Origin: a virus | Taxonomy: Duplodnaviria; Heunggongvirae; Uroviricota; Caudoviricetes | IMG/VR virus record: IMGVR_UViG_3300008267_008434 | Length of the DNA stretch: 64,000 nt | Direction: 5' to 3' (one strand) | Shown here: positions 11,118-57,175 of the stretch, piece after piece | Position numbering within the stretch: the stretch's first letter is position 1 | Layout of the letters: every line of letters begins with the position of its first letter | Notes under the pieces: model-generated | The model's input: only the letters and a program-made list of their open reading frames with translations | Databases searched by the model: none | Told to the model about the DNA's origin: nothing | Position numbers and translations under genes: made by a program

Positions 11118-11807
11118 ATGAGAGATAAGAAAATTTTGGTTAGGGATTTAGTTATTCATTTAAAAAAATTAAAGTTTGCAAAATATTTAGTTGAGTATAT
11201 TGATAACGAAATTCCTTTAACCATATTCCCTATTGCGAATAGGGAGGGGTTGACAATTAATGAATGGGTGAAAGATGTTGAAGATGATGTAAGACAACAC
11301 ACAGTTTTGACTACAACCAGATTATCATATGATGGTGTTAAATCATTTTTAGTTTACAAATTAAATACAATTCTCTCAACCTATAACGACGCAAATATTA
11401 AAGTACTTAAAATTACTGAGATTGTTAATACTGAAGAAATTGAGGGTAAATCTTTTGACGCTATATTTGAGTTTAACGGTGAAATTATTATAATTGAAAT
11501 TAAAGTAACCCAAAGCGATACCGCATTTACAGGTGCAACACATACAACATCAAAAGCGGATATTTTTTTATTAATATCATTATCAATTAATCGTGATAAA
11601 AAAGTTAAGGAAAGTGAAAAATATGTTGATGGTATTTTCGGTATGTTAATTAACTTGGATAAAGATTTTTGGAAAGGTGAGGCTAAAAATAATAGTAGTT
11701 TTACTACACTTAAATTTTTATCAAATATTGACTATAGTGAAAATATTTTTTGTGGTAGTCTTAAAAACAATAAAGTATACCAAAAACTAATTTTTGAAAA
11801 AATATGA
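11118..11807 (+). CDS. Hypothetical protein with candidate PD-(D/E)xK motif; possible nuclease partner of the downstream MTase
   Basis: 'SFDAIFEFNGEIIIIEIKV' gives D-x13-E-I-K spacing typical of PD-(D/E)xK. The stop overlaps the MTase start (ATGA). Confidence 0.3.
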   Translation: MRDKKILVRDLVIHLKKLKFAKYLVEYIDNEIPLTIFPIANREGLTINEWVKDVEDDVRQHTVLTTTRLSYDGVKSFLVYKLNTILSTYNDANIKVLKITEIVNTEEIEGKSFDAIFEFNGEIIIIEIKVTQSDTAFTGATHTTSKADIFLLISLSINRDKKVKESEKYVDGIFGMLINLDKDFWKGEAKNNSSFTTLKFLSNIDYSENIFCGSLKNNKVYQKLIFEKI

Positions 11808-12715
11808 ATGAAGTAATTTTAGGTAATGCGATTGAAGTATTACAAAGATATGAGGATAATACATTTGATTTAACTGTAACATCACCACCGTATGATAACT
11901 TAAGAACTTATAATGGAAAAATTAAGGATGAGGTTGTCTTTGAAGATGGATTTAGTTTCCCATTTGTGGAAATGGCTCGTGAGTTATATAGAGTAACCAA
12001 GAAGGGTGGTGTTGTTATTTGGGTGGTAAATGATCAAGTAAAAAATGGTGGAGAAACTGGTAGTTCATTCAGACAAGCACTTAAATTTAAGGAGATTGGA
12101 TTTACATTGTACGATACGATGATTTATCATAAGAATGGAGCCCCATTTCCTGAAACAGGTAGATACTCACAAGTATTTGAATATATGTTCGTCCTTTCAA
12201 AAGGGAAACCAAAAACGGTTAATCTATTAAAAGATAAACCAAATAGATGGGCGGGACATAGTAATTTTGGTGATCCATCAAAAAGAGAAAAAGACGGAAA
12301 CCTTAAAAAGGTTGACAAGTTTGTTGTATCTGAATTCGGTACAAGGTATAATGTATGGTATGTTAATAATGGTAAAGGGTTCTCATCCAAAGACGACATT
12401 GCATTCCAACATCCTGCAATATTTCCGGAATCATTGGCTGAGGATCATATTCTATCTTGGAGTAATGAAGGTGATATAGTATTAGATCCTATGTGTGGTA
12501 GTGGAACGACATTGAAGATGGCGAAACTTAATAACAGGAATTATTTGGGTATTGACATCAATGAAGAATATGTCGATTTATCAAATCTAAGAATACAAAA
12601 TATTGAACCATACACTAATGAAACACCTAATCCAAAGGTTAAATTCCTTTTATCTAAAGAAGATGCTTTATTGAAAAGAAAAAATAATAAAGAATCTAAA
12701 AATTTGTTGGATTAA
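11804..12715 (+). CDS. DNA methyltransferase, beta-class (N6-adenine or N4-cytosine)
   Basis: Motif IV 'TVTSPPYDN' precedes motif I 'LDPMCGSGTTLKMA', which is the beta-class order. Confidence 0.8.
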   Translation: MNEVILGNAIEVLQRYEDNTFDLTVTSPPYDNLRTYNGKIKDEVVFEDGFSFPFVEMARELYRVTKKGGVVIWVVNDQVKNGGETGSSFRQALKFKEIGFTLYDTMIYHKNGAPFPETGRYSQVFEYMFVLSKGKPKTVNLLKDKPNRWAGHSNFGDPSKREKDGNLKKVDKFVVSEFGTRYNVWYVNNGKGFSSKDDIAFQHPAIFPESLAEDHILSWSNEGDIVLDPMCGSGTTLKMAKLNNRNYLGIDINEEYVDLSNLRIQNIEPYTNETPNPKVKFLLSKEDALLKRKNNKESKNLLD

Positions 12716-13288: not shown

Positions 13289-14089
13289 ATGAAGGAAAAA
13301 GGAACAGGAATGCCCATTAATCAGGATGAAATCTCTCACTACCTAAAGGATATTAGGAAGATTAAAGTTATGACACCTGAAAGGGAAAAAGAATTATCTA
13401 AACTTATGATGTCGGATACTTTAACTGACAAACAACGAAAACAAGTTGAACAGGAGTTGTTAACAGGTAATTTACGATTTGTTATTACCGTTGCAAAACA
13501 ATATCAAAATCAAGGTTTGGATTTTCCTGATTTGGTTGCTGAGGGTAACTTAGGGTTATTGAAAGCAATTAAAAACTTTGATTGGAGTAAAAATTTGAGA
13601 TTTATTTCATATGCCGTTTGGTGGGTTAAACAATCTATTATTCAGTCTTTAAATGACAATGCGAGAACAATTAGACTTCCTGTAAATGTTGTTCAGGAAC
13701 TTCATAAAGCTAAAAAAGAAATTGAGAATAATGGAGGAAAACTATCGGATAAATTCTCATCTTTACCATCAATGATTGACTTAGATATGAATATCAATGA
13801 TGAGGGAGATACATTCCTTGATATGATACCAAATATGGATGCAGACGCTCCTGATGCGGCTTTTAATACTGCGGACATTCTTAAAGAAAAATTAATCAAT
13901 ACACTTAGTGTTTTAGATGAAAGAGAACGAGTAATTATTGAGGATTATTTTGGACTTAGTGGAACACCAAGAACTTTGGAAGATATTGGAGGTGATTTTG
14001 GTTTAACTAAAGAACGAGTAAGACAGATTAAAGAAAGAGCTTTGAGAAGGTTACGAAATGAGAGTTCTGAATTATTTGATTATATCTAA
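13289..14089 (+). CDS. RNA polymerase sigma factor, sigma-70 family (regions 2-4)
   Basis: Region 2: 'LRFVITVAKQYQNQGLDFPDLVAEGNLGLLKAIKNFD' and 'YAVWWVKQSI'. Region 4 HTH: 'LTKERVRQIKERALRRLR'. Confidence 0.85.
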   Translation: MKEKGTGMPINQDEISHYLKDIRKIKVMTPEREKELSKLMMSDTLTDKQRKQVEQELLTGNLRFVITVAKQYQNQGLDFPDLVAEGNLGLLKAIKNFDWSKNLRFISYAVWWVKQSIIQSLNDNARTIRLPVNVVQELHKAKKEIENNGGKLSDKFSSLPSMIDLDMNINDEGDTFLDMIPNMDADAPDAAFNTADILKEKLINTLSVLDERERVIIEDYFGLSGTPRTLEDIGGDFGLTKERVRQIKERALRRLRNESSELFDYI

Positions 14090-23045: not shown

Positions 23046-23975
23046 ATGAATATTCCGAATTATTACGACATATTAGGTGTTCCTGAAACTGCAACCCAAG
23101 ATGAGATAAAAAAAGTATATCGTAAACTGGCAAAAGAAAATCACCCTGATGCTGGTGGTGATGAGGAAAAGTTTAAGCAAATTGCTGAAGCATATGATAC
23201 TATTGGTGACGATAACAAACGACAAGAGTATGATATGAGAAGAAAGAACCCATTTGCAGGAATGGGAGGAGGTGACGATATATTCCAACAGATGTTTAAT
23301 CAGGCATTTGGTAATCGTAGACAAAAAAATGTGGTACATGATTTAGTTATTGATACTGAATTAAAAGTTACTGAATCATATTTGGGTGCGAATAAAGAAA
23401 TCACATATCGTAGGAAATTAAAATGTGATCCATGTAATGGTAGTGGGGGTGAGAAGAAAATTTGTCCCGAATGTAATGGACAAGGTTCTGTAGTGAGACA
23501 GATGGGGTCTGGTATGTTTATACAAATGGTACAAGTTGCTTGTAACACTTGTTCAGGACATGGACGAGTTATTACAAATCCTTGTCATATTTGTAATGGT
23601 AGTGGGACTAAAGATGAGATGAAAACTGTTGAAGTTAAATTACCTAATGGTATTGATGATGGACAATTCATCCGATTACAAGGTGTTGGGGATTTTAGAA
23701 ACGGTGTTTATGGTAACTTAGTTGTTAGAGTTAAATTGGTTTCTGATAATAATTTTGAAAAGTACGGACCTCACTTAATTTATAATGCTTATTTCACATT
23801 GGATGATTTGAAGAAGAGTGATTTTGAAATACCTCATCCTGACGGTACGGTAAGGTTAAGATTCCCAAAGACATTTGATACAACAAAACCCTTAAGAGTT
23901 AAATCAAAAGGGTTTAAAGGTGAAGTGATAGGTGACTTGTTGGTTAACCAGCATGTCCGATTTGAAAGGGATTAA
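23046..23975 (+). CDS. dnaJ: DnaJ-family co-chaperone (J domain plus four CxxCxGxG zinc-finger repeats plus C-terminal domain)
   Basis: 'YYDILGV...HPD' J domain. Repeats 'CDPCNGSGG', 'CPECNGQGS', 'CNTCSGHGR', 'CHICNGSGT'. Confidence 0.85.
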   Translation: MNIPNYYDILGVPETATQDEIKKVYRKLAKENHPDAGGDEEKFKQIAEAYDTIGDDNKRQEYDMRRKNPFAGMGGGDDIFQQMFNQAFGNRRQKNVVHDLVIDTELKVTESYLGANKEITYRRKLKCDPCNGSGGEKKICPECNGQGSVVRQMGSGMFIQMVQVACNTCSGHGRVITNPCHICNGSGTKDEMKTVEVKLPNGIDDGQFIRLQGVGDFRNGVYGNLVVRVKLVSDNNFEKYGPHLIYNAYFTLDDLKKSDFEIPHPDGTVRLRFPKTFDTTKPLRVKSKGFKGEVIGDLLVNQHVRFERD

Positions 23976-24910: not shown

Positions 24911-25750
24911 ATGTTAAGTTATATCGGAGGTAAGAGTAAAATTGGAAAGTGGATAGTCCCTTTCTATGATAATAATATGGAAACATATGTTGAAACATTC
25001 GGAGGGATGTTTTGGTGTTTCTTCAACATGGACTTAAAACAGTTCCCAAACCTAAAGAAAGTTGTTTATAACGACTTTAATCCACTTAATTACAATCTGT
25101 TTAAATGTATTCAGAACCCAACTGAATTATTGAATGCAATTAACGCAATTGATTGTCAGAAATTTGGTGTAGAAGTAACTCCACCAATTTATAAAGAACA
25201 GTTTATCAGGTTTCAGGCTGAAATTTTTAGTGAAGGTTTCAGTGTAGAACCTGGTAATTATGAAGTTGCTGCTAAATACGCTTATGTCCTTACACAGGTT
25301 TTTAGTGGTTCTAAACCTGAGACAAGTTCATTCATTGACTTGAAAGGTAAATACAAATCAAAGTATCTTACATTTAGAGATAAATTATCTAAACCTGATT
25401 GGGTAGAACATTTCTTGAAAATTACGGATGTTGAAAATATGGATTTTGAGGATGTCATTAAAAAGTATGATTCACCAACAACATATTTTTATGTTGATCC
25501 ACCATATTGGAAAACTGAAAATTACTATTCAAATCACGATTTTGACAGAGAAGATCATGAAAGACTTGCAAATATATTAAAAGGAATGGAAGGTAAATTT
25601 AGTTTGTCGTATTATGACTTCCCGTTGTTATCGGAATGGTTCCCTAAAGAACAATATAGTTGGGAGAAAAAAGAATTCGCTAAGGCGGCGGCAGCCAAAA
25701 AAGGTACCAAACAAAATATGGGTGAAGAATTACTTATACTGAATTATTAA
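24911..25750 (+). CDS. dam: DNA adenine methyltransferase (Dam / D12 class)
   Basis: N-terminal 'YIGGKSK', motif I 'VETFGGMF', catalytic 'VDPPYW'. Confidence 0.8.
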   Translation: MLSYIGGKSKIGKWIVPFYDNNMETYVETFGGMFWCFFNMDLKQFPNLKKVVYNDFNPLNYNLFKCIQNPTELLNAINAIDCQKFGVEVTPPIYKEQFIRFQAEIFSEGFSVEPGNYEVAAKYAYVLTQVFSGSKPETSSFIDLKGKYKSKYLTFRDKLSKPDWVEHFLKITDVENMDFEDVIKKYDSPTTYFYVDPPYWKTENYYSNHDFDREDHERLANILKGMEGKFSLSYYDFPLLSEWFPKEQYSWEKKEFAKAAAAKKGTKQNMGEELLILNY

Positions 25751-25799
25751 TTAATTTATTCATTTTTATTTATCGTAATATTTATAGTAAAAACATCAA

Positions 25800-27644
25800 A
25801 TGAAATTAGTAAAAATTTTATCATCGGTAATCGTAGAAAATGTTGATCCTAAATTTAGATTAACAGAAATATCAAATAAATTAATGAATCAACTTGTCCT
25901 TAAATTTAGTAACGAAACTAAAGATTCTGAGGATGATATTAAAAGTTATATTGGTGATTTTGATAAATATAAAAACGGATTACCTGCCGACAAACGAGAC
26001 ATTACAAAATATACATATGATCAACTTAAGTCTGTGATTTTATCAAAAAGAGTTAAGAAGGAAGAAGGTGATATATTTAAAACCTATATGAAGGGTCCTG
26101 GTAAAGGTTCTGATCAAAGACAAGTTAAGTCTATGATTAAGAAATTCTTAGAGATAAGAAATTATCTACCTGAACCTAATAGGGATATTATGAGATACCC
26201 TTATTTGAAGTTGGTTGAATTGATACAAAATAAATTTGGTGGAATTATTACCAAGGCGGCATTTGAAAAATATAAGAAAGAAAGAAACGATTTAACAAAC
26301 GAGCAAATACTTTCTTACATTGAAAGATATGTTGATTTGTATGATAGATTGGAAGCAAATACGCCACCGATTATGTTAATGTCATTTGATGAGTTGGAGG
26401 CGGCATTGGATCATTTACCTGACGGAGATGATACACCAAAGAAAAAAGGTGACGACTTTAAAGATATTGAAACAATCTACGATAAAGATAATTTGTATAT
26501 CTTCAAACCAAACGGTAAAGAACAATGTATTAGATTAGCACATGGAAGACCTTGGTGTACATCAAGAATTGGTGGTGGTAACTTATATTACAACTATCGT
26601 TTGGAAAATAACTTAACACTTTACTATGTTATTGACAGAGATACCCCATTTGATGATTTGAACTTCGCGGTTGTTATCTTGGTTGATGAGTATGGAAGAA
26701 AAAGAATTGCCGATGGTAAAAACATGGCTGGTGGATATTCAGGACACAGAACAGAGACTTGGGATACAATCTCATCTAAAGTTCCGAAGTTAAAAGACAA
26801 AGAATACTTATTTACTCCAGATCCACTTACTGATAGAGAAAAAGGATTATTAAGAAAATACAAACATATTAATGTTCAAGACGATGCAGTTAAAGAACTT
26901 GGTTCGGTTGAAGATGCTGAGTTTTGGTTAGAAATTGCAAGTCCAAACCTAACAAACAAACCAAGAGTTTATATTAATTTACCTTCAGAACTTAAAAAGA
27001 AATATATTTCTTTGGGTATGGATTTAACAGGTGATATGATTACAAGTTCAGAACCTGATGTTGTTAAATATTATTTGGCAAGAAAGATTGATTCGTTGAG
27101 AACCAAAACTTTAAATAATCTTACCACCGCGGATATTGCTTTGATTAATATGCCGGGAATGAAAAATCTTAAGGAAGAACTTAAGGTTAAATATGCCGGA
27201 CAGTTGGCAACAGAAGGTGACAACATTGTTAAGATTACATACCCGAATGATGCGTCATCAAAATATATTGCATTGTTTGGTTTTGATGAATTATTTGAAA
27301 ATTTACCTGAAAGTATTACATATTTAACAATATCAAATAAATCAAACGATTCTCTTGATTTGGATATACCGGCAAGCATTGGTAAGTTTACAAATATAAT
27401 AGCATTGGTACTTGAGAATTGTGTAAAATCACTACCTGAAGAATTAGGAAGAATGGAAGGATTAACATTCCTAACATTACAGAATAATAAAAATCTTCAA
27501 AGTCTACCTGAGTCTTTAGCGGATTTAGAGTATTTGGATCTTATTGCGTTATCGGGATCAAATCCAAGTGTTGTAATACCTGAAAGATTAAAGAATATGA
27601 TGGTTGAAGAAGGTGATGGTTTTTACTATATTTCAAGAGACTAA
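25800..27644 (+). CDS. Large protein: internally duplicated N-terminal module, WC[TS] domain, C-terminal leucine-rich repeats
   Basis: 'LPADKRDITKYTYDQLKSVI' and 'LPEPNRDIMRYPYLKLVELI' are a duplication. 'HGRPWCTSRIGGGNLYYNYRL...LYYVIDRD' is shared with the 54205..55179 gene. C-terminal LxxLxLxxN repeats. Confidence 0.5.
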   Translation: MKLVKILSSVIVENVDPKFRLTEISNKLMNQLVLKFSNETKDSEDDIKSYIGDFDKYKNGLPADKRDITKYTYDQLKSVILSKRVKKEEGDIFKTYMKGPGKGSDQRQVKSMIKKFLEIRNYLPEPNRDIMRYPYLKLVELIQNKFGGIITKAAFEKYKKERNDLTNEQILSYIERYVDLYDRLEANTPPIMLMSFDELEAALDHLPDGDDTPKKKGDDFKDIETIYDKDNLYIFKPNGKEQCIRLAHGRPWCTSRIGGGNLYYNYRLENNLTLYYVIDRDTPFDDLNFAVVILVDEYGRKRIADGKNMAGGYSGHRTETWDTISSKVPKLKDKEYLFTPDPLTDREKGLLRKYKHINVQDDAVKELGSVEDAEFWLEIASPNLTNKPRVYINLPSELKKKYISLGMDLTGDMITSSEPDVVKYYLARKIDSLRTKTLNNLTTADIALINMPGMKNLKEELKVKYAGQLATEGDNIVKITYPNDASSKYIALFGFDELFENLPESITYLTISNKSNDSLDLDIPASIGKFTNIIALVLENCVKSLPEELGRMEGLTFLTLQNNKNLQSLPESLADLEYLDLIALSGSNPSVVIPERLKNMMVEEGDGFYYISRD

Positions 27645-27659
27645 TTTAAATCCGAATAT

Positions 27660-27956
27660 ATGAGTAATGTTGATATTGAAATTTATGTATCACAATTAAT
27701 TAATTTCTTTGAGAGTAATCCAAACGATTTAATTGAATTGATAGGTAATCTTCAGAAAGAAGAGTTCTATCATAAATTGAGAGAGAAGTGTGAAGAGAAC
27801 TATAAGAAAGGTGAAGATATTGTTTTGACAAAAAATCAAATTATTGATATTGTGGTGGAACTTAAAATACCTGAACTATCGGATAAATTAAATCCTAAAC
27901 AAGTTGTGGAAGGGTTTATCCAAAAAACAAAGTTTGGGGATATTATTTTAAATTAA
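27660..27956 (+). CDS. Hypothetical protein
   Basis: 98-aa ORF. Confidence 0.4.
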   Translation: MSNVDIEIYVSQLINFFESNPNDLIELIGNLQKEEFYHKLREKCEENYKKGEDIVLTKNQIIDIVVELKIPELSDKLNPKQVVEGFIQKTKFGDIILN

Positions 27957-34294: not shown

Positions 34295-34486
34295 GTGAAA
34301 ATAATGGGATTCAACAAGAGGATACTCAGAAAAGATAATATTATTAATAATCTTGATAACCTATCAAGATATCTATCAGCCGATGCAATTATTATTAGTG
34401 ACGACTTTTCAAATGAAGTGTTCAAAATGTTCTGCGAAGGAAAAACTGAGGATGAAATCATAAAATATATAAATAAAAACAAATGA
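34295..34486 (+). CDS. Hypothetical small protein
   Basis: 63 aa with ATGA overlap into the GS gene. The antisense ORF 34288..34482 was judged spurious. Confidence 0.3.
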   Translation: MKIMGFNKRILRKDNIINNLDNLSRYLSADAIIISDDFSNEVFKMFCEGKTEDEIIKYINKNK

Positions 34487-35682
34487 AGATTAAACTTGAA
34501 TATCTGTGGTTAGACGGATATATGCCGGAACCAAATTTAAGAAGTAAGGTAAAAATTGTTAATTACGATGACATAAAAAATTCATTTATAACGGGTAGAT
34601 TTCCTGAATGGAACTTTGACGGATCATCAACAAACCAAGCAGAAACTGGGACTTCAGACTGTATTTTAAAACCTGTAAGACATTATTTGGATGATAAATT
34701 TGGTAGTGTGTATGTTCTTTGTGAGGTTATGAATTCAGACGGAACACCACATCAATCAAATACCAGATCATTACTTGGTAATGAACAAGAGGATTTGTGG
34801 TTTGGTTTTGAACAAGAATACTTTATCTATGATAGAAAAAATAAATGTATTTTAGGCCACGATGAAAACAACTTGGAACCACAAGGTAAATATTATTGTG
34901 GTGTTGGAGAATATGTTGCGGGTAGAGAATTTGTTGAAGAACATATGAATTTATGTTTAAGGTATGGGATTAACATAACAGGAATAAATGCCGAGGTTGC
35001 ACTTGGACAATGGGAGTATCAAGTATTCTCTCAAGGTAAATTGAAATCAGGAGATGATTTATGGATGTCTAGATACCTATTACATAAGTTGTCCGAAAAA
35101 TATAATTATGGGATTGAACTACACCCAAAACCAATCCAAAAAGGTGAATGGAATGGATCTGGACTTCACACAAACTTCTCAAATTATAAAATGAGGGAAG
35201 AAGGTGGTGAAAATCATTTTAAATCAATTTTCTCAAGTTTTGCCACAAGACACCAAGAACATATTGAAAATTATGGTTCATCAAATGAATTAAGATTGAC
35301 GGGTAAATTTGAAACCCAATCAATTAATAAGTTTAGTTGGGGTATTTCAGATAGAGGTGCATCAATTAGAGTTCCACAATCAACCGCAAAAGAATGGAAG
35401 GGATATGTTGAAGATAGACGACCATCATCTAATGCTGATCCATATAAAATCATTTATCAAATATGTGAATCATTAAGAAACGCTGAAGAGATTGACGACA
35501 TCAAACATAAAATGAATTATAAACTTGATATGGACAACCTTAAGATGGATTATAAAACAATCCCAACCGATGAACTATTAAAAGAATACTTCAATGATGA
35601 AGAATTTGAATTGGATGGTAAAACAATGGATGGAAGTAATATCCCTACAAAAGAAATTAAATTTGATTTAAATGGAAAATAA
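34483..35682 (+). CDS. glnA: Glutamine synthetase, type II (eukaryotic-like GSII)
   Basis: 'PEWNFDGSST', 'YYCGVGEYVAGREFVEEH', 'GINAEVALGQWEYQV', 'NGSGLHTNFS' and 'ASIRVPQS...GYVEDRRPSSNADPY' are near-identical to GSII signature regions. Length 399 aa. Confidence 0.85.
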   Translation: MKIKLEYLWLDGYMPEPNLRSKVKIVNYDDIKNSFITGRFPEWNFDGSSTNQAETGTSDCILKPVRHYLDDKFGSVYVLCEVMNSDGTPHQSNTRSLLGNEQEDLWFGFEQEYFIYDRKNKCILGHDENNLEPQGKYYCGVGEYVAGREFVEEHMNLCLRYGINITGINAEVALGQWEYQVFSQGKLKSGDDLWMSRYLLHKLSEKYNYGIELHPKPIQKGEWNGSGLHTNFSNYKMREEGGENHFKSIFSSFATRHQEHIENYGSSNELRLTGKFETQSINKFSWGISDRGASIRVPQSTAKEWKGYVEDRRPSSNADPYKIIYQICESLRNAEEIDDIKHKMNYKLDMDNLKMDYKTIPTDELLKEYFNDEEFELDGKTMDGSNIPTKEIKFDLNGK

Positions 35683-36511
35683 TATATTTAACAAATTACC
35701 CGGAATGATGTTTGGTAAGGGTGAGGGTAACATTAGTTGGTACCCAGAAAGGATTCATACCCTACAAGATTTGGTATACCAAATTAAACCAAGAAATATT
35801 ATTGAAATAGGATTCAATGAAGGACATTCAATGGTTTTAATATGTGAGACATTATTGAAAATAATTAATGAAGATCCTGATTTTAATAGGAAACCAATAA
35901 TTGTTTTTGTATTTGATGACTGTAAATATGAGAGTACTGTTAACAATCACTCAATACTTGCCAAGCATTACAGGAAGTGGAACATACATTTGAGTTTATT
36001 TCCTGGTAACTCCCTTGAGGTTGTTCCAAGAGTTTTAGACACATCAAAAACAAAATTTGATTTTATTGAGATTGATGGGTGCCACTTTGAGGAATGCGTT
36101 AGAGGTGATATTAATAATGTGATTAATTTTATTAATGATGATGGTATTGTATATTTGGATGATTATAAGTCCTCAAAAGATCCTACTGAAGGTGTTAATA
36201 ATGTAATTGAATCATTTGACTGGCAAGGATTTAATACCTATCATATTGATGGAGTATTTTGGGCTCACAAAAAGAAAAAAGAAATGGAAGAAAAAAAGGA
36301 ACAAGTAAATCACCCTAACCACTATGGGGGAGAGTCAAACCCATATGAAGCAATCAAGGTGATTGATGCTTGGGACTTAGGATTCTCCCTTGGTAATACT
36401 GTGAAGTATATCTCAAGAGCGGGTAAGAAAGAGTTAGATAAAGAATTACAGGATCTTAAAAAAGCATTGTGGTATTTGCAACACCACATTGAAACATTGG
36501 AGAAAAAATGA
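35672..36511 (+). CDS. Fusion: class I SAM-dependent methyltransferase domain plus C-terminal DUF3310
   Basis: 'IIEIGFNEGHS' (motif I-like) and 'FIEIDGCHFEE...GIVYLDDY' (Methyltransf_24-like). C-terminal 'VNHPNHYGG...IDAWDLGFSLGNTVKYISRAGKK...DLKKALWYLQ' is the DUF3310 signature. Confidence 0.55.
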   Translation: MENNIFNKLPGMMFGKGEGNISWYPERIHTLQDLVYQIKPRNIIEIGFNEGHSMVLICETLLKIINEDPDFNRKPIIVFVFDDCKYESTVNNHSILAKHYRKWNIHLSLFPGNSLEVVPRVLDTSKTKFDFIEIDGCHFEECVRGDINNVINFINDDGIVYLDDYKSSKDPTEGVNNVIESFDWQGFNTYHIDGVFWAHKKKKEMEEKKEQVNHPNHYGGESNPYEAIKVIDAWDLGFSLGNTVKYISRAGKKELDKELQDLKKALWYLQHHIETLEKK

Positions 36512-52107: not shown

Positions 52108-53238
52108 ATGGAAAATCAAAATAGCGTAGCATATGTTGGAAAAATAGGTTCAGTAGTTGAAATACCAAATGCTGACAACATAGAACTTGTACTTGTTGGT
52201 GGATGGCAGGCGATAACCAAAAAAGGTGAATACCAAGAAGGAGATAAAGTTGTTGTTGCAACCACTGATGCGGTAATACCACAAGCATTGTCTGACTTGA
52301 TGGAAGTGACTAACTACCTTCGTAAAGGACAACGAGTTAGAACCGTAAAACTTCGTGGATTTTATTCCGAATGTTTGTTAATACCATTCAAGTACTTGGC
52401 ACCAAAATCATTGGTGAACAATGTTAATGAAGGTGATGATATGATGGAAATACTTGGAATAACCAAATACGAACCACCGGTTAAAATGGTTACTTTGGGT
52501 GGAGGTAAGAAAGTTAGATACCACCAAAATCCAAACTTCCATATCTATCACAAATTCCCAAACATGAAGAATGTTCCTGATATGTTCACCGAAGAAGATG
52601 AGGTTGTTATCACCCGTAAAATACACGGAACTAATGCCAGATTTGGAATAGTTAGAAAGAAAAAACTTTCTTTGTGGGATAGAGTGAAAAAGTTCTTCGG
52701 TAATGAGTGGGTTGAGTTTGAATATGTGTATGGTTCTCATAATGTGGAGAAAGGATCTGATTCTCAAGGATTCTACGATACTGATGTGTGGAGAGAAGTT
52801 GCCAACAAATATGACATACGAAAAAAACTTTGGGATCATGTTAAGGATACATATTACCCTGAATCTTTGGAACAAGGACTTACTATCTATGGGGAAATCT
52901 ATGGTAAAGGAATCCAAAAAAACTATGAATATGGTTTGGAGGAAATAAAGTTTGTTGGTTTTGATGTTGAAGTTGATGGTGTTTATCAACCACACCTTGA
53001 AGAAACCGTTCATTTTGATTGTTTGGAACTCCCACAAGTTGAAGTATTATATGAAGGAACTTGGAGTAAAGAAGAACAAGATAAATATGTCTTCGGTAAT
53101 TTTATAAAAGGAACCAAAGTTCCTCACGAAGGTATCGTTGTTAAATCTGTGACTGGTGATCGTCATAAAGTTGCAAAGGTTATCAATCCTGATTATTTAA
53201 TATATGGGGAGAAAAATAATGTTGGTGACTCCCATTGA
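52108..53238 (+). CDS. ATP-dependent RNA ligase (Rnl2-like nucleotidyltransferase)
   Basis: Motif I 'RKIHGTN' (KxHGT), motif IV 'HEGIVVKS', motif V 'KVAKVIN'. Confidence 0.6.
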   Translation: MENQNSVAYVGKIGSVVEIPNADNIELVLVGGWQAITKKGEYQEGDKVVVATTDAVIPQALSDLMEVTNYLRKGQRVRTVKLRGFYSECLLIPFKYLAPKSLVNNVNEGDDMMEILGITKYEPPVKMVTLGGGKKVRYHQNPNFHIYHKFPNMKNVPDMFTEEDEVVITRKIHGTNARFGIVRKKKLSLWDRVKKFFGNEWVEFEYVYGSHNVEKGSDSQGFYDTDVWREVANKYDIRKKLWDHVKDTYYPESLEQGLTIYGEIYGKGIQKNYEYGLEEIKFVGFDVEVDGVYQPHLEETVHFDCLELPQVEVLYEGTWSKEEQDKYVFGNFIKGTKVPHEGIVVKSVTGDRHKVAKVINPDYLIYGEKNNVGDSH

Positions 53239-53545: not shown

Positions 53546-53965
53546 ATGAGACATCACGCAAATTTCTTCATTAACCGACTTGCAACTGAATGGTTAAAAA
53601 ATGGTAAATTGATTATTGGTTGTGATCTTGATGACACAATAATTCCATATAATGAAGAATTAAAAGAACATTGTCAAAAAGTTGTTGACTTGATTTTGGA
53701 ATGTCAAAAAGAAGGTATTATATTTTTAATTAATACTGCAAGAAGTGAACGACAATTGGAAACCGCAAAAGAACAAGTTGAAAAGTTGGGTATTGAAGTT
53801 CATGGGGTAAATCAAATGCATCCTGAGTGGGATAAACCATATGGGATGAATGGTAAGATATATGCAAACATATTCCTTGATGATAGAGGTGGAATAAAAA
53901 GTACATATTGGGATTTAAGTGAGGTTTTATCAATAGTAAAAAGAGAAAGAAGAAATGAAAAATAG
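53546..53965 (+). CDS. HAD-superfamily phosphatase (small)
   Basis: 'IIGCDLDDTII' DxDxT motif I, with 'INTARS' as a motif II-like Thr/Ser. Confidence 0.5.
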   Translation: MRHHANFFINRLATEWLKNGKLIIGCDLDDTIIPYNEELKEHCQKVVDLILECQKEGIIFLINTARSERQLETAKEQVEKLGIEVHGVNQMHPEWDKPYGMNGKIYANIFLDDRGGIKSTYWDLSEVLSIVKRERRNEK

Positions 53966-54204: not shown

Positions 54205-55179
54205 ATGGGACTAAAACATTTAAAAGAACAGAATCCTGATTTGAATATCAATTTAATTGATTTGATTTCCAAATTGGATCCGACTAAAACAAAAAAGTTA
54301 ACACCTTTATTAATTAAGATGTTAAAAGATGGTATTGAAATTCGTAAAAATGATATGTATTGGGGCGGGAATGAAAATGACTCACCAACAGTAAAAATAA
54401 TTAAAGAATTACCCGATTCAAAAATGACACTTTTGAATTGGTTGTGTGTAAATTATTTCAATGTGGAAAATTTGGATAAACTTCCCCTATTTACAGAATA
54501 TCTTGAAAGAGGATTGGTGGAAAATACGGACATATCAACATATAAAGATTTCAACGACATAATTAGGGAAGTTGGAAAGGCAGCAACTAAAGAGATGTTG
54601 AAAAAATCCAAAAAGGATATTATGATTGTTCACGACGACGATGAATGGTTATTCTTTAAACCATTAACTCACGATGCTGCGATTACATATGGGTTTGGAA
54701 CAAAGTGGTGTACATCAATGAAGAACGATGGTGAGTACTTCTATAGATATTCGGCACAAGGAGTTTTGATTTATGTAATAAATAAAAAGACAAACAGAAA
54801 GTTTGGTATTCATAGTAATAATGAGGTTAAAATTGGTATATATGATGAAGTTGATAATCATATTGATTCATTTGAAACTGGTTTACCTAATGAATTGATT
54901 AAAAAACTTTTTGAGTGGTTGGATGTTAAAACTAATCATACTAATTATGACTTGTTCTCACCTGAAGAAAAAATTAAGAGTCGTAAACATTATTTCAATG
55001 GGAAAGACGAAATTATAGAACTAACCGAACAAACTATGGATGAACTTCCAATTCCTGTTGAGGATATGATGATGGAAGAGCCAAGATTGGTACCAAGAAT
55101 GGCACCAAGGTTAGTACCGATGACTATACCAATGAGAAATTATCCTGCAATTTTAAGAGATTTTGACGATTTACCATAA
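54205..55179 (+). CDS. WC[TS]-domain protein (paralogous domain with the 25800..27644 gene)
   Basis: 'IMIVHDDDEWLFFKPLTHDAAITYGFGTKWCTSMKNDGEYFYRYSAQGVLIYVINKK' aligns with the middle of the LRR protein. Confidence 0.45.
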   Translation: MGLKHLKEQNPDLNINLIDLISKLDPTKTKKLTPLLIKMLKDGIEIRKNDMYWGGNENDSPTVKIIKELPDSKMTLLNWLCVNYFNVENLDKLPLFTEYLERGLVENTDISTYKDFNDIIREVGKAATKEMLKKSKKDIMIVHDDDEWLFFKPLTHDAAITYGFGTKWCTSMKNDGEYFYRYSAQGVLIYVINKKTNRKFGIHSNNEVKIGIYDEVDNHIDSFETGLPNELIKKLFEWLDVKTNHTNYDLFSPEEKIKSRKHYFNGKDEIIELTEQTMDELPIPVEDMMMEEPRLVPRMAPRLVPMTIPMRNYPAILRDFDDLP

Positions 55180-56354: not shown

Positions 56355-56594
56355 ATGGAAAAAAGAAGTAATCACTACGGAGATGTTGCAAAATGGATTG
56401 AAAAGGTTATTGACTCTTGTGAGACATACCAACAAACTTTTACTGCCAAAAAATTGATTAGAAATTTTAATGATCAACTAAGGAGAGACACTCCTGACAA
56501 GTATTGGGGAGATTATCAGTATAGTGTTATTTGGCCACTTGAGGCAATGGTAACATCCAAACGACAATCATTCATAAACAAAATTGAGGGGTAA
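56355..56594 (+). CDS. Hypothetical small protein
   Basis: 79-aa ORF. Confidence 0.4.
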   Translation: MEKRSNHYGDVAKWIEKVIDSCETYQQTFTAKKLIRNFNDQLRRDTPDKYWGDYQYSVIWPLEAMVTSKRQSFINKIEG

Positions 56595-57175
56595 TGAAAG
56601 TTATATTTTTGGATCACGATGGAGTTATTTGTCTTTCCAATAATTGGGGAGGACGAACGAAAAAATGGGCAAACTATCGTAGTGAAAACCCTGATAGTAG
56701 TAAGGAAAAAAAAGACGCTCCAGTATCTTTTCGTTTTGATGATTTTGACACTAAGTCGGTTAAAGTTCTTAATGAAATTCTTGAAGAAACAGGAGCTGAG
56801 ATTGTGGTATCTTCAGATTGGAAACTACACGCTACACTAGAAGAACTTGGTGAGTACTATGAGTTACACGGAATAAGTAAAAAACCAATATCATTAACAC
56901 CAAACATAGGTACGTGTACAGTTCATGGTAATTTATTTATTTGGTCCCCACGATGGGATTTAGAACAAACACGAACAATTGAAATTAGACAATATCTTCA
57001 TGATCACCCTGAAGTAACTCATTGGGTCTCTATTGATGACTTGAATATGGGTAAAATTGGTGAACCCTGGAAAGATGAGTGGGCGATAGATAATTTTGTA
57101 TTGACACCAAAATCAAACGAAGGTATTAAACAATCTGGGGTTAAAGAAAAGATATTAAAATATTTGAAAGATTAA
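56594..57175 (+). CDS. HAD-superfamily hydrolase
   Basis: 'KVIFLDHDGVI' DxDGx motif I. C-terminal 'VSIDDLN' Asp pair. Confidence 0.5.
   Translation: MKVIFLDHDGVICLSNNWGGRTKKWANYRSENPDSSKEKKDAPVSFRFDDFDTKSVKVLNEILEETGAEIVVSSDWKLHATLEELGEYYELHGISKKPISLTPNIGTCTVHGNLFIWSPRWDLEQTRTIEIRQYLHDHPEVTHWVSIDDLNMGKIGEPWKDEWAIDNFVLTPKSNEGIKQSGVKEKILKYLKD

Follow-up and report, generated by a model that had tools for sequence, protein, structure and literature searches.

In T4-type and giant phages, prohead proteases cut after glutamate in x-x-E motifs and strip capsid-targeting peptides of 10–20 residues from proteins destined for later ejection into the host (PMC5694885, PMC9958956). In the Pseudomonas phage PA5oct, mass spectrometry identified 93 virion-linked products (PMC7318152). 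PcfJ (PF14284) is a domain of plasmid and phage proteins; the PDB contains no PcfJ structure, and our literature search found no functional study of it. Here, we analyze two open reading frames (ORFs), ORF A and ORF B, from IMG/VR virus record IMGVR_UViG_3300008267_008434 (Caudoviricetes). They lie in a stretch of 64,000 nucleotides (the window) that comes from an uncultivated huge phage and represents its replication and auxiliary region. ORF A and ORF B are paralogous members of one very large family, and the domain that defines it, which we call the WC domain, is real, very abundant, and unnamed.

Two paralogs share one domain

ORF A and ORF B are genuine genes, with the borders given by an earlier reading of the sequence alone (hereafter, the sequence-only reading). 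Full-length orthologs of ORF A, at 46–100% identity, occur on metagenomic contigs of up to 311 kb, and relatives of ORF B, down to ~30% identity, occur on contigs of up to 351 kb.

The sequence-only reading had proposed that a segment of about 100 residues is homologous between the two proteins, unless the similarity disappeared under statistical alignment. The similarity survived, and the homology is genuine. BLASTP with compositional adjustment aligned 62 amino acids (221–282 of ORF A with 137–196 of ORF B, WCTS included) at 35% identity and E = 6e-9, and hhalign comparison of the two ortholog alignments gave a probability of 95% and E = 3e-8 across 82 columns. A joint profile extends the domain to ~110–130 residues in each protein (Table 1). 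An AT-rich genome (30.8% GC in the window) and so short a pairwise alignment could in principle give a chance or compositional match between proteins with no domain in common. But given these E values, and given that one profile recovers both families and thousands more proteins with Pro, Trp, and Cys at the same invariant positions, that explanation can practically be dismissed.

We modeled both proteins with AlphaFold2 (AF2); the mean predicted local distance difference test (pLDDT) scores were 80 for ORF A and 75 for ORF B. In the ORF B model, the WC domain is predicted to be an alpha/beta domain of ~110 residues, with a beta-hairpin, three helices, a three-stranded beta-meander, and two helices, in that order. 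The invariant Trp-Cys is placed at the start of the second of the three helices. Most blocks of the domain have pLDDT of 79–89, with two blocks at 68 and 73. Within the ORF A family, the WC domain is the best conserved part of the protein: its mean pairwise identity is 0.69, versus 0.43–0.51 for the helical and LRR (leucine-rich repeat) domains and 0.45 for the LRRs.

No Pfam or NCBIfam family matches the WC domain at threshold, and ORF B had no match when its profile was searched against PDB sequences. To this extent, the earlier statement that the domain has no known family holds, but families do exist in PHROGs: ORF B matches phrog_17056 (E = 4e-17) and phrog_28193 (E = 4e-12) over the WC domain, which is also probably a divergent PcfJ-like domain (see below). 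Nor is the domain new to this genome, as had been supposed, given these PHROGs families and the thousands of relatives described next.

A very large family of viral proteins

We searched the WC-domain profile against 1.84 billion cluster representatives and recovered 6,679 of them at E ≤ 1e-3 and 1,935 at E ≤ 1e-10. Most are B-like proteins of ~300–350 amino acids; others are proteins of 600–1,900 amino acids that carry two to five copies of the domain. The fusion partners are mainly interaction repeats (WG_beta_rep and BspA-type LRR_5; a match to DUF4116 was under the cut-off), and some family members are annotated as ankyrin or LRR proteins. One protein, P0364, is fused to a polyA/CCA-type nucleotidyltransferase with an RNA-binding domain.

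Foldseek searches of viral models identified homologues in Salicola phage SCTP-2 (as tandem paralogues), PA5oct-like Pseudomonas phages, Caulobacter phage CcrBL9, uncultured Caudovirales (one with the WC-plus-LRR layout of ORF A, E = 4e-13), and metagenomic Marseillevirus bins, where some are named ankyrin or LRR proteins. IMG/VR yielded 241 confirmed relatives of ORF B, on contigs of up to 318 kb. Outside viruses, a scan of 185,579 bacterial and archaeal species (one genome each) for ORF B relatives gave 87 pattern matches, none of which was confirmed; the joint alignment of both families was too diverse for a pattern scan of cellular genomes. A search of plasmids with the WC domain gave no match. 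Thus, the family is so far confined to viruses. Among publications that mention both jumbo phages and LRRs, we found none whose title or abstract concerns this family.

One member, P0241 (1,844 amino acids, five WC copies; locus L031, 2042..13497), is encoded on an 18-kb metagenomic contig beside genes for a Cas7fv-like protein, Cas6, and a DEAD helicase. These genes resemble a type I-F-variant CRISPR-Cas module.

Repeats on both sides of the WC domain in ORF A

The N-terminal part of ORF A had been described as an internally duplicated module. The internal repeat is genuine, but there are three copies rather than two. In hhalign comparisons of these ~55-residue helical modules, copy 1 matched copy 2 at E = 1.2e-12 and copy 3 at E = 5e-7, and the remaining pair had E = 1.6e-6. 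Copy 3 abuts the WC domain, and ORF B and the Pseudomonas phage protein MIJ3_46 / PA5oct gp205 likewise have a counterpart of copy 3 in front of their WC domains, so the conserved unit is the helical module together with the WC domain. The helical middle domain of ORF A matched no family (Pfam, PDB profile search), and hhalign found nothing like it in other parts of ORF A or ORF B.

The C-terminal LRRs noted in the sequence-only reading are real. The profile of the ORF A family matched only LRR proteins among PDB sequences (amino acids ~495–600, best E = 1.8e-54), including GSO1, LIC11098, FLS2, and SHOC-2, and the AF2 model of ORF A has a four-repeat solenoid of periodic strand and helix elements with pLDDT above 90. 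ORF A thus has the tandem 20–30-residue LxxLxLxxN/CxL units and the beta/alpha solenoid of LRR proteins. In ORF A alone, Pfam LRR_14 scores under its cut-off (E = 5.5e-4, 19.2 versus 40 bits). The NCBIfam families XopAE, XopAC, XopL, and SlrP match ORF A in their LRR parts only, with scores far under the family cut-offs. As had been proposed, the region is akin to protein-binding LRRs, including those of type III effectors. The layout of ORF A (three helical modules, WC domain, and LRRs) is one lineage-specific variant within the family.

ORF B ends differently. A C-terminal [DE]DLP recurs in many members of the ORF B family, and in ORF B itself, this acidic tip (amino acids 321–324, 55165..55176, ..RDFDDLP) follows a disordered linker of ~55 residues. 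The C-terminal tip of the single-stranded DNA-binding protein SSB is DFDDDIPF. The tip of ORF B resembles it and may be a short docking motif.

Invariant residues and the case for an enzyme

Across 194 copies of the WC domain, the Trp is present in all 194, the Cys in 193, and the Pro in 191. The sequence-only reading had asked if the conserved Cys and His are catalytic, and the WC domain could be an enzyme (a peptidase, deamidase, transferase, or thiol-dependent modifier) that uses the invariant Cys as its nucleophile and is delivered to its substrate by the LRRs. The conservation of Trp and Cys speaks for such an enzyme, as does the predicted location of the Cys at the N-terminus of a helix; also, PcfJ carries His-Cys at the equivalent position. 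However, none of the His positions is conserved across the 194 copies, and there is no other obvious catalytic partner. The His in the proposed consensus (AHG..WCTS) is H or N in the ORF A family and is absent from ORF B. Because no His is conserved, catalysis by a Cys/His pair is unsupported, and we rejected a Cys/His peptidase. Furthermore, there is no match among PDB sequences and no fold precedent, and a CxxC/S redox motif is ruled out because the third residue after the Cys may be A, S, or T. We therefore consider a Cys-dependent enzyme to be quite improbable. If the Cys does prove to be catalytic, it would define a new enzyme family.

Other candidates were rejected as well. The combination of a conserved Cys and His, an Asp/Asn, and a papain-like fold, as in papain-like or Cys-His hydrolases, was not found. 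A thioredoxin-like site (WCxxC or WCxxS) does not fit the variable third residue. Finally, we considered a component of anti-phage defence, but PADLOC had no match for ORF A, ORF B, the DUF932 protein encoded near ORF A, or PcfJ.

A probable kinship with PcfJ

We compared the WC domain with PcfJ because of the motif layout of PcfJ (…P…EG…HCV..Y…G..I.F.R…). For this, we took PcfJ of plasmid pCF10 together with 13 diverse PcfJ domains of phage and plasmid origin; a search of a big protein database for PcfJ homologues returned near-identical enterococcal fragments only. Three hhalign comparisons of WC with PcfJ gave E = 1.6e-3 (51 columns), 7.2e-4 (59 columns), and 0.031 (88 columns, the whole domain), with probabilities of 2–26% and with the identical register all three times. 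The Pfam model of PcfJ matches two other, multi-copy WC proteins, P0243 (E = 1.7e-4, 21.9 bits) and P0321 (E = 2.2e-3, 18.3 bits), exactly on a WC copy but under the gathering score of 25 bits. Neither ORF A nor ORF B matches this model at E ≤ 1, and among 114 B-type proteins, one does (E = 0.035). When the ORF B model was searched with Foldseek, a PcfJ-annotated protein was among the sub-threshold matches (rank 23, E = 0.09).

In the 14 PcfJ domains, the E, G, C, and V of the Glu-Gly...His-Cys-Val motif are invariant and the H is nearly so. The WC family retains only the Cys; it has Trp at the position of the His, and no Glu-Gly. As the Pfam threshold and the Glu-Gly/His motif both fail, the WC domain is at most a divergent sister branch and not a member of PcfJ. 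Judging from these comparisons together, which are weak but agree, the two domains are probably homologous, and the WC domain is most likely a highly diverged, non-catalytic PcfJ-like branch in which Trp replaces the His of His-Cys.

We made two other observations about PcfJ of pCF10. Its gene (locus L002, 15874..17984) adjoins a gene for an AcrIIA9-family anti-CRISPR. Also, its N-terminus holds KPLTPPKAFFNWCTA, which mimics the KPLT...WCTA of the WC family, but this similarity is not significant (hhalign E = 0.049).

RNA repair genes beside ORF B

In 47 of the 66 informative B-type loci in IMG/VR, a gene for an RNA ligase (PHA02142/RNA_ligase) lies upstream of the B-type gene on the same strand, with a median gap of 728 bp. 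These ligases are just 26–84% identical. A HAD_SAK_2 gene lies downstream of the B-type gene in 38 of 80 loci. Together with the fusion of one WC protein to a polyA/CCA-type nucleotidyltransferase with an RNA-binding domain, this linkage raises the possibility that the WC domain serves phage RNA (tRNA) repair as an accessory module. ORF B would then be a partner of the ligase and the HAD phosphatases (for example, recognizing damaged RNA or recruiting the enzymes), and ORF A would be a derived paralogue. We consider this unlikely. The linkage may reflect functional coupling or just the synteny of a lineage; other neighbours are shared too, so it may be mere conserved gene order within one phage lineage. 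The neighbours of ORF A are quite different (Dam methylase and DUF932), the WC domain is near neutral (isoelectric point of 6.2–6.6), which is atypical of nucleic-acid binders, and most fusions are to protein-binding repeats.

In one relative (locus L030, 2577..4571), a 222-amino-acid ORF divides the RNA ligase that lies upstream of the B homologue into an ORF for the oligonucleotide/oligosaccharide-binding (OB) fold and an ORF for the ligase. The dividing ORF may be an inserted homing element or an intein-like gene.

Virion association and the proposed role

Two members of the family are linked to virions or to head genes. EST35_0205 of PA5oct is annotated as a “structural protein, ESI-MS/MS” (electrospray ionization tandem mass spectrometry), and its gene adjoins that of the terminase large subunit. 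The gene for P0364, which has two WC copies as well as the CCA/polyA nucleotidyltransferase (locus L032, 1420..17189), lies between a Portal_T4 gene and genes for Peptidase_S77 and Gp23. This place in a T4-like head module suggests that P0364 is a head-packaged tRNA-repair enzyme.

ORF A has a third clue. Proteins of the ORF A family begin with a leader (M[KED]L[VL]K[IL]LS.V[IV].E, then L[TN]E[IV]S) that is conserved and predicted to be flexible. Strong enrichment of this motif at the N-terminus was seen in A-type proteins and several multi-copy proteins, but not in B-type proteins. In ORF A, it contains hydrophobic-x-Glu twice, at I11-V12-E13 and at L21-T22-E23. The leader may be a prohead-protease or capsid-targeting peptide; such a pattern would fit packaging but is no proof of it.

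We propose that the WC domain is a conserved, non-catalytic handle to which a variable binding domain is joined, and we would put the probability of this at roughly 40%. The WC domain, together with its helical module, would be the constant part of modular proteins and would dock on a putative conserved partner. Specificity would come from the appended domains; in ORF A these are the four LRRs, and other proteins have ankyrin, WG, BspA-LRR, or enzyme domains. In ORF A, the three helical modules and the WC domain would anchor the protein, possibly within the phage head once the leader has been processed. The LRR cap, which evolves fast, would then bind a host protein, or possibly a phage protein, and ORF A would act as an adaptor or effector early in infection. 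The contrast between a constant core and a variable periphery favors this proposal (69% identity in the WC domain versus 45% in the LRRs, within the ORF A family). As the variable module of ORF A is an LRR cap, the simplest reading of ORF A is as an adaptor or effector with a protein as its binding target. The step in which ORF A is packaged in the head is less certain than the general proposal. Head packaging is our leading idea for the A-type and multi-copy proteins, and an association with RNA repair is our leading idea for the B-type proteins.

Several observations weigh against this proposal. A Cys that is invariant and starts a helix would more typically serve chemistry than binding. ORF A and ORF B sit among replication and auxiliary genes rather than structural genes, the virion mass spectrometry concerns a homologue, and the 64-kb window contains no prohead protease or head genes. 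A packaging signal would not need multiple WC copies per polypeptide, and the hydrophobic-x-Glu motif of the leader is short and could be an ordinary feature of a helix. Finally, the link to PcfJ is statistically weak, with hhalign probabilities of 2–26% and 1 of 114 B-type proteins touching the Pfam model, and because PcfJ has no known function, the link explains little.

A bolder idea, which we think is improbable, is that WC and PcfJ-like domains mark a very large, unrecognised class of “entry cargo” that travels with incoming DNA, in phage heads or with conjugative plasmids. The WC domain would then be a common handle for loading or anchoring, the appended modules (LRRs, the CCA-adding enzyme, and other repeats) would have their effect on the host within minutes of the start of infection, and ORF A would be an LRR effector that a huge phage injects.

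The WC domain is found in thousands of huge-phage protein clusters, yet it has neither a name nor a Pfam model. It is a concrete target for curation and experiment, with a clear boundary, invariant Pro, Trp, and Cys, a companion helical module, and a probable tie to PcfJ. There are two contextual leads, the virion association and the linkage to RNA ligase genes. If the WC domain is indeed a handle for variable binders, then large phages would have a major toolkit for targeting host components, and the LRR-capped ORF A would be a suitable protein to start with.

Surroundings in the window

The features of the window are listed in Table 1. Its other genes include a primase, Mre11/SbcC-like genes, a thioredoxin, and a glutaredoxin, and we found no tRNA genes in it. 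A tblastn search of 50,697 phage genomes with ORF A gave no match, and megablast of a 20-kb region against sequenced phages gave no nucleotide match.

ORF A belongs to a conserved block with the order DnaJ, Dam methylase, ORF A, a 98-amino-acid ORF, DUF932, thioredoxin, and glutaredoxin. ORF A evolves the fastest in this block (51% identity versus 58–86% for its neighbours), and the block breaks up at 47% identity. The 98-amino-acid ORF (27660..27956), between ORF A and the DUF932 gene, is co-conserved, with 66% identity where ORF A has 51%. This ORF has a weak PADLOC match to PD-T4-9_A (E = 2.7e-4). Upstream of ORF A, positions 25751..25799 (..ATAGTAAAAACATCAA ATG) lack a Shine-Dalgarno-like sequence, and promoter-like or terminator-like sequences around ORF A scored no better than shuffled sequence.

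Table 1. Features of ORF A, ORF B, and their surroundings (positions in the window; aa, amino acids).
Feature	Position	Strand	Description
N6_N4 DNA methylase	11804..12715		First of three methyltransferases in 64 kb
Sigma-70 family factor	13289..14089		
DnaJ	23046..23975		
D12/Dam methylase	24911..25750		Second of three methyltransferases in 64 kb
ORF A	25800..27644	+	614 aa; leader, three helical modules, WC domain, helical middle domain, four LRRs
N-terminal leader, ORF A	25800..25868	+	aa 1–23, MKLVKILSSVIVE / ..RLTE; conserved, predicted flexible, pLDDT <50
Helical module copy 1	25932..26096	+	aa 45–99, F..YK..LP...RDI.KY.Y..L; hhalign
Helical module copy 2	26118..26282	+	aa 107–161; hhalign
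Helical module copy 3	26289..26432	+	aa 164–211, immediately N-terminal to the WC domain; hhalign
WC domain of ORF A	26445..26837	+	aa 216–346, W252-C253; profile match
Helical middle domain, ORF A	26838..27224	+	aa 347–475; AF2 helices 345–466
C-terminal LRR solenoid, ORF A	27225..27641	+	~4 repeats of 23–24 aa (aa ~505–600) plus cap
Glutamine-synthetase-like (GlnA-like) gene	34483..35682		
Methyltransf_24 protein fused to DUF3310	35672..36511		Third of three methyltransferases in 64 kb
RNA ligase (PHA02142 OB fold + RNA_ligase)	52108..53238	+	Pfam; upstream of ORF B
HAD-like hydrolase	53546..53965		Near ORF B
ORF B	54205..55179	+	324 aa; N-terminal helical region, WC domain, disordered acidic tail
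WC domain of ORF B	54598..54942	+	aa 132–246, W168-C169; BLASTP, hhalign, joint profile
Disordered tail, ORF B	55003..55176	+	aa 267–324, pLDDT <50, acidic tip ..DFDDLP conserved
HAD_SAK_2 (“Swiss Army Knife” RNA-repair HAD) protein	56594..57175	+	Pfam E = 8.6e-21; downstream of ORF B

Comparison with described systems

The families phrog_17056 and phrog_28193 include the homologues from Salicola phage SCTP-2 and PA5oct-type phages that were recovered by tblastn. They carry no functional annotation, and ORF A does not match them directly; its only PHROG match is to the LRR part.

Compared with LRR effectors and adaptors (Xanthomonas XopAE, XopAC, and XopL, Salmonella SlrP, SHOC-2, and the Leptospira LIC proteins), ORF A resembles the LRR part only; it has ~4 repeats and lacks a secretion signal, ligase, or kinase domain. 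What it shares with them is a short C-terminal LxxLxLxxNxxLxxLP solenoid on an unrelated domain.

The internal proteins of T4 and giant phages (IPI–III and Alt, and the paralogue families of phiKZ and SPN3US) have no kinship in sequence or fold with ORF A or ORF B. The likeness lies elsewhere: both are paralogous families in big phages, one WC homologue was detected in virions and the gene of another lies within a cluster of head genes, and the leader of ORF A ends in hydrophobic-x-Glu, like targeting peptides that are removed by the protease.

PcfJ, which is known from Enterococcus plasmid pCF10 and from large proteins of Herelleviridae phages, is as uncharacterised as the WC domain. PcfJ is a C-terminal domain known from plasmids and phages of Firmicutes, whereas the WC domain occurs in huge aquatic phages and in some giant-virus bins, frequently as multiple copies, and has its own helical module in front. 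The predicted order of elements is the same in both: a strand ending in Pro, a helix, Gly, three residues, and [H/W]-Cys at the start of a helix, followed by Tyr, Gly, a hydrophobic strand with Lys/Arg at its end, a beta-meander, and finally a helix at the C-terminus. Both domains are confined to mobile elements and phages, and both are usually one domain within larger proteins.

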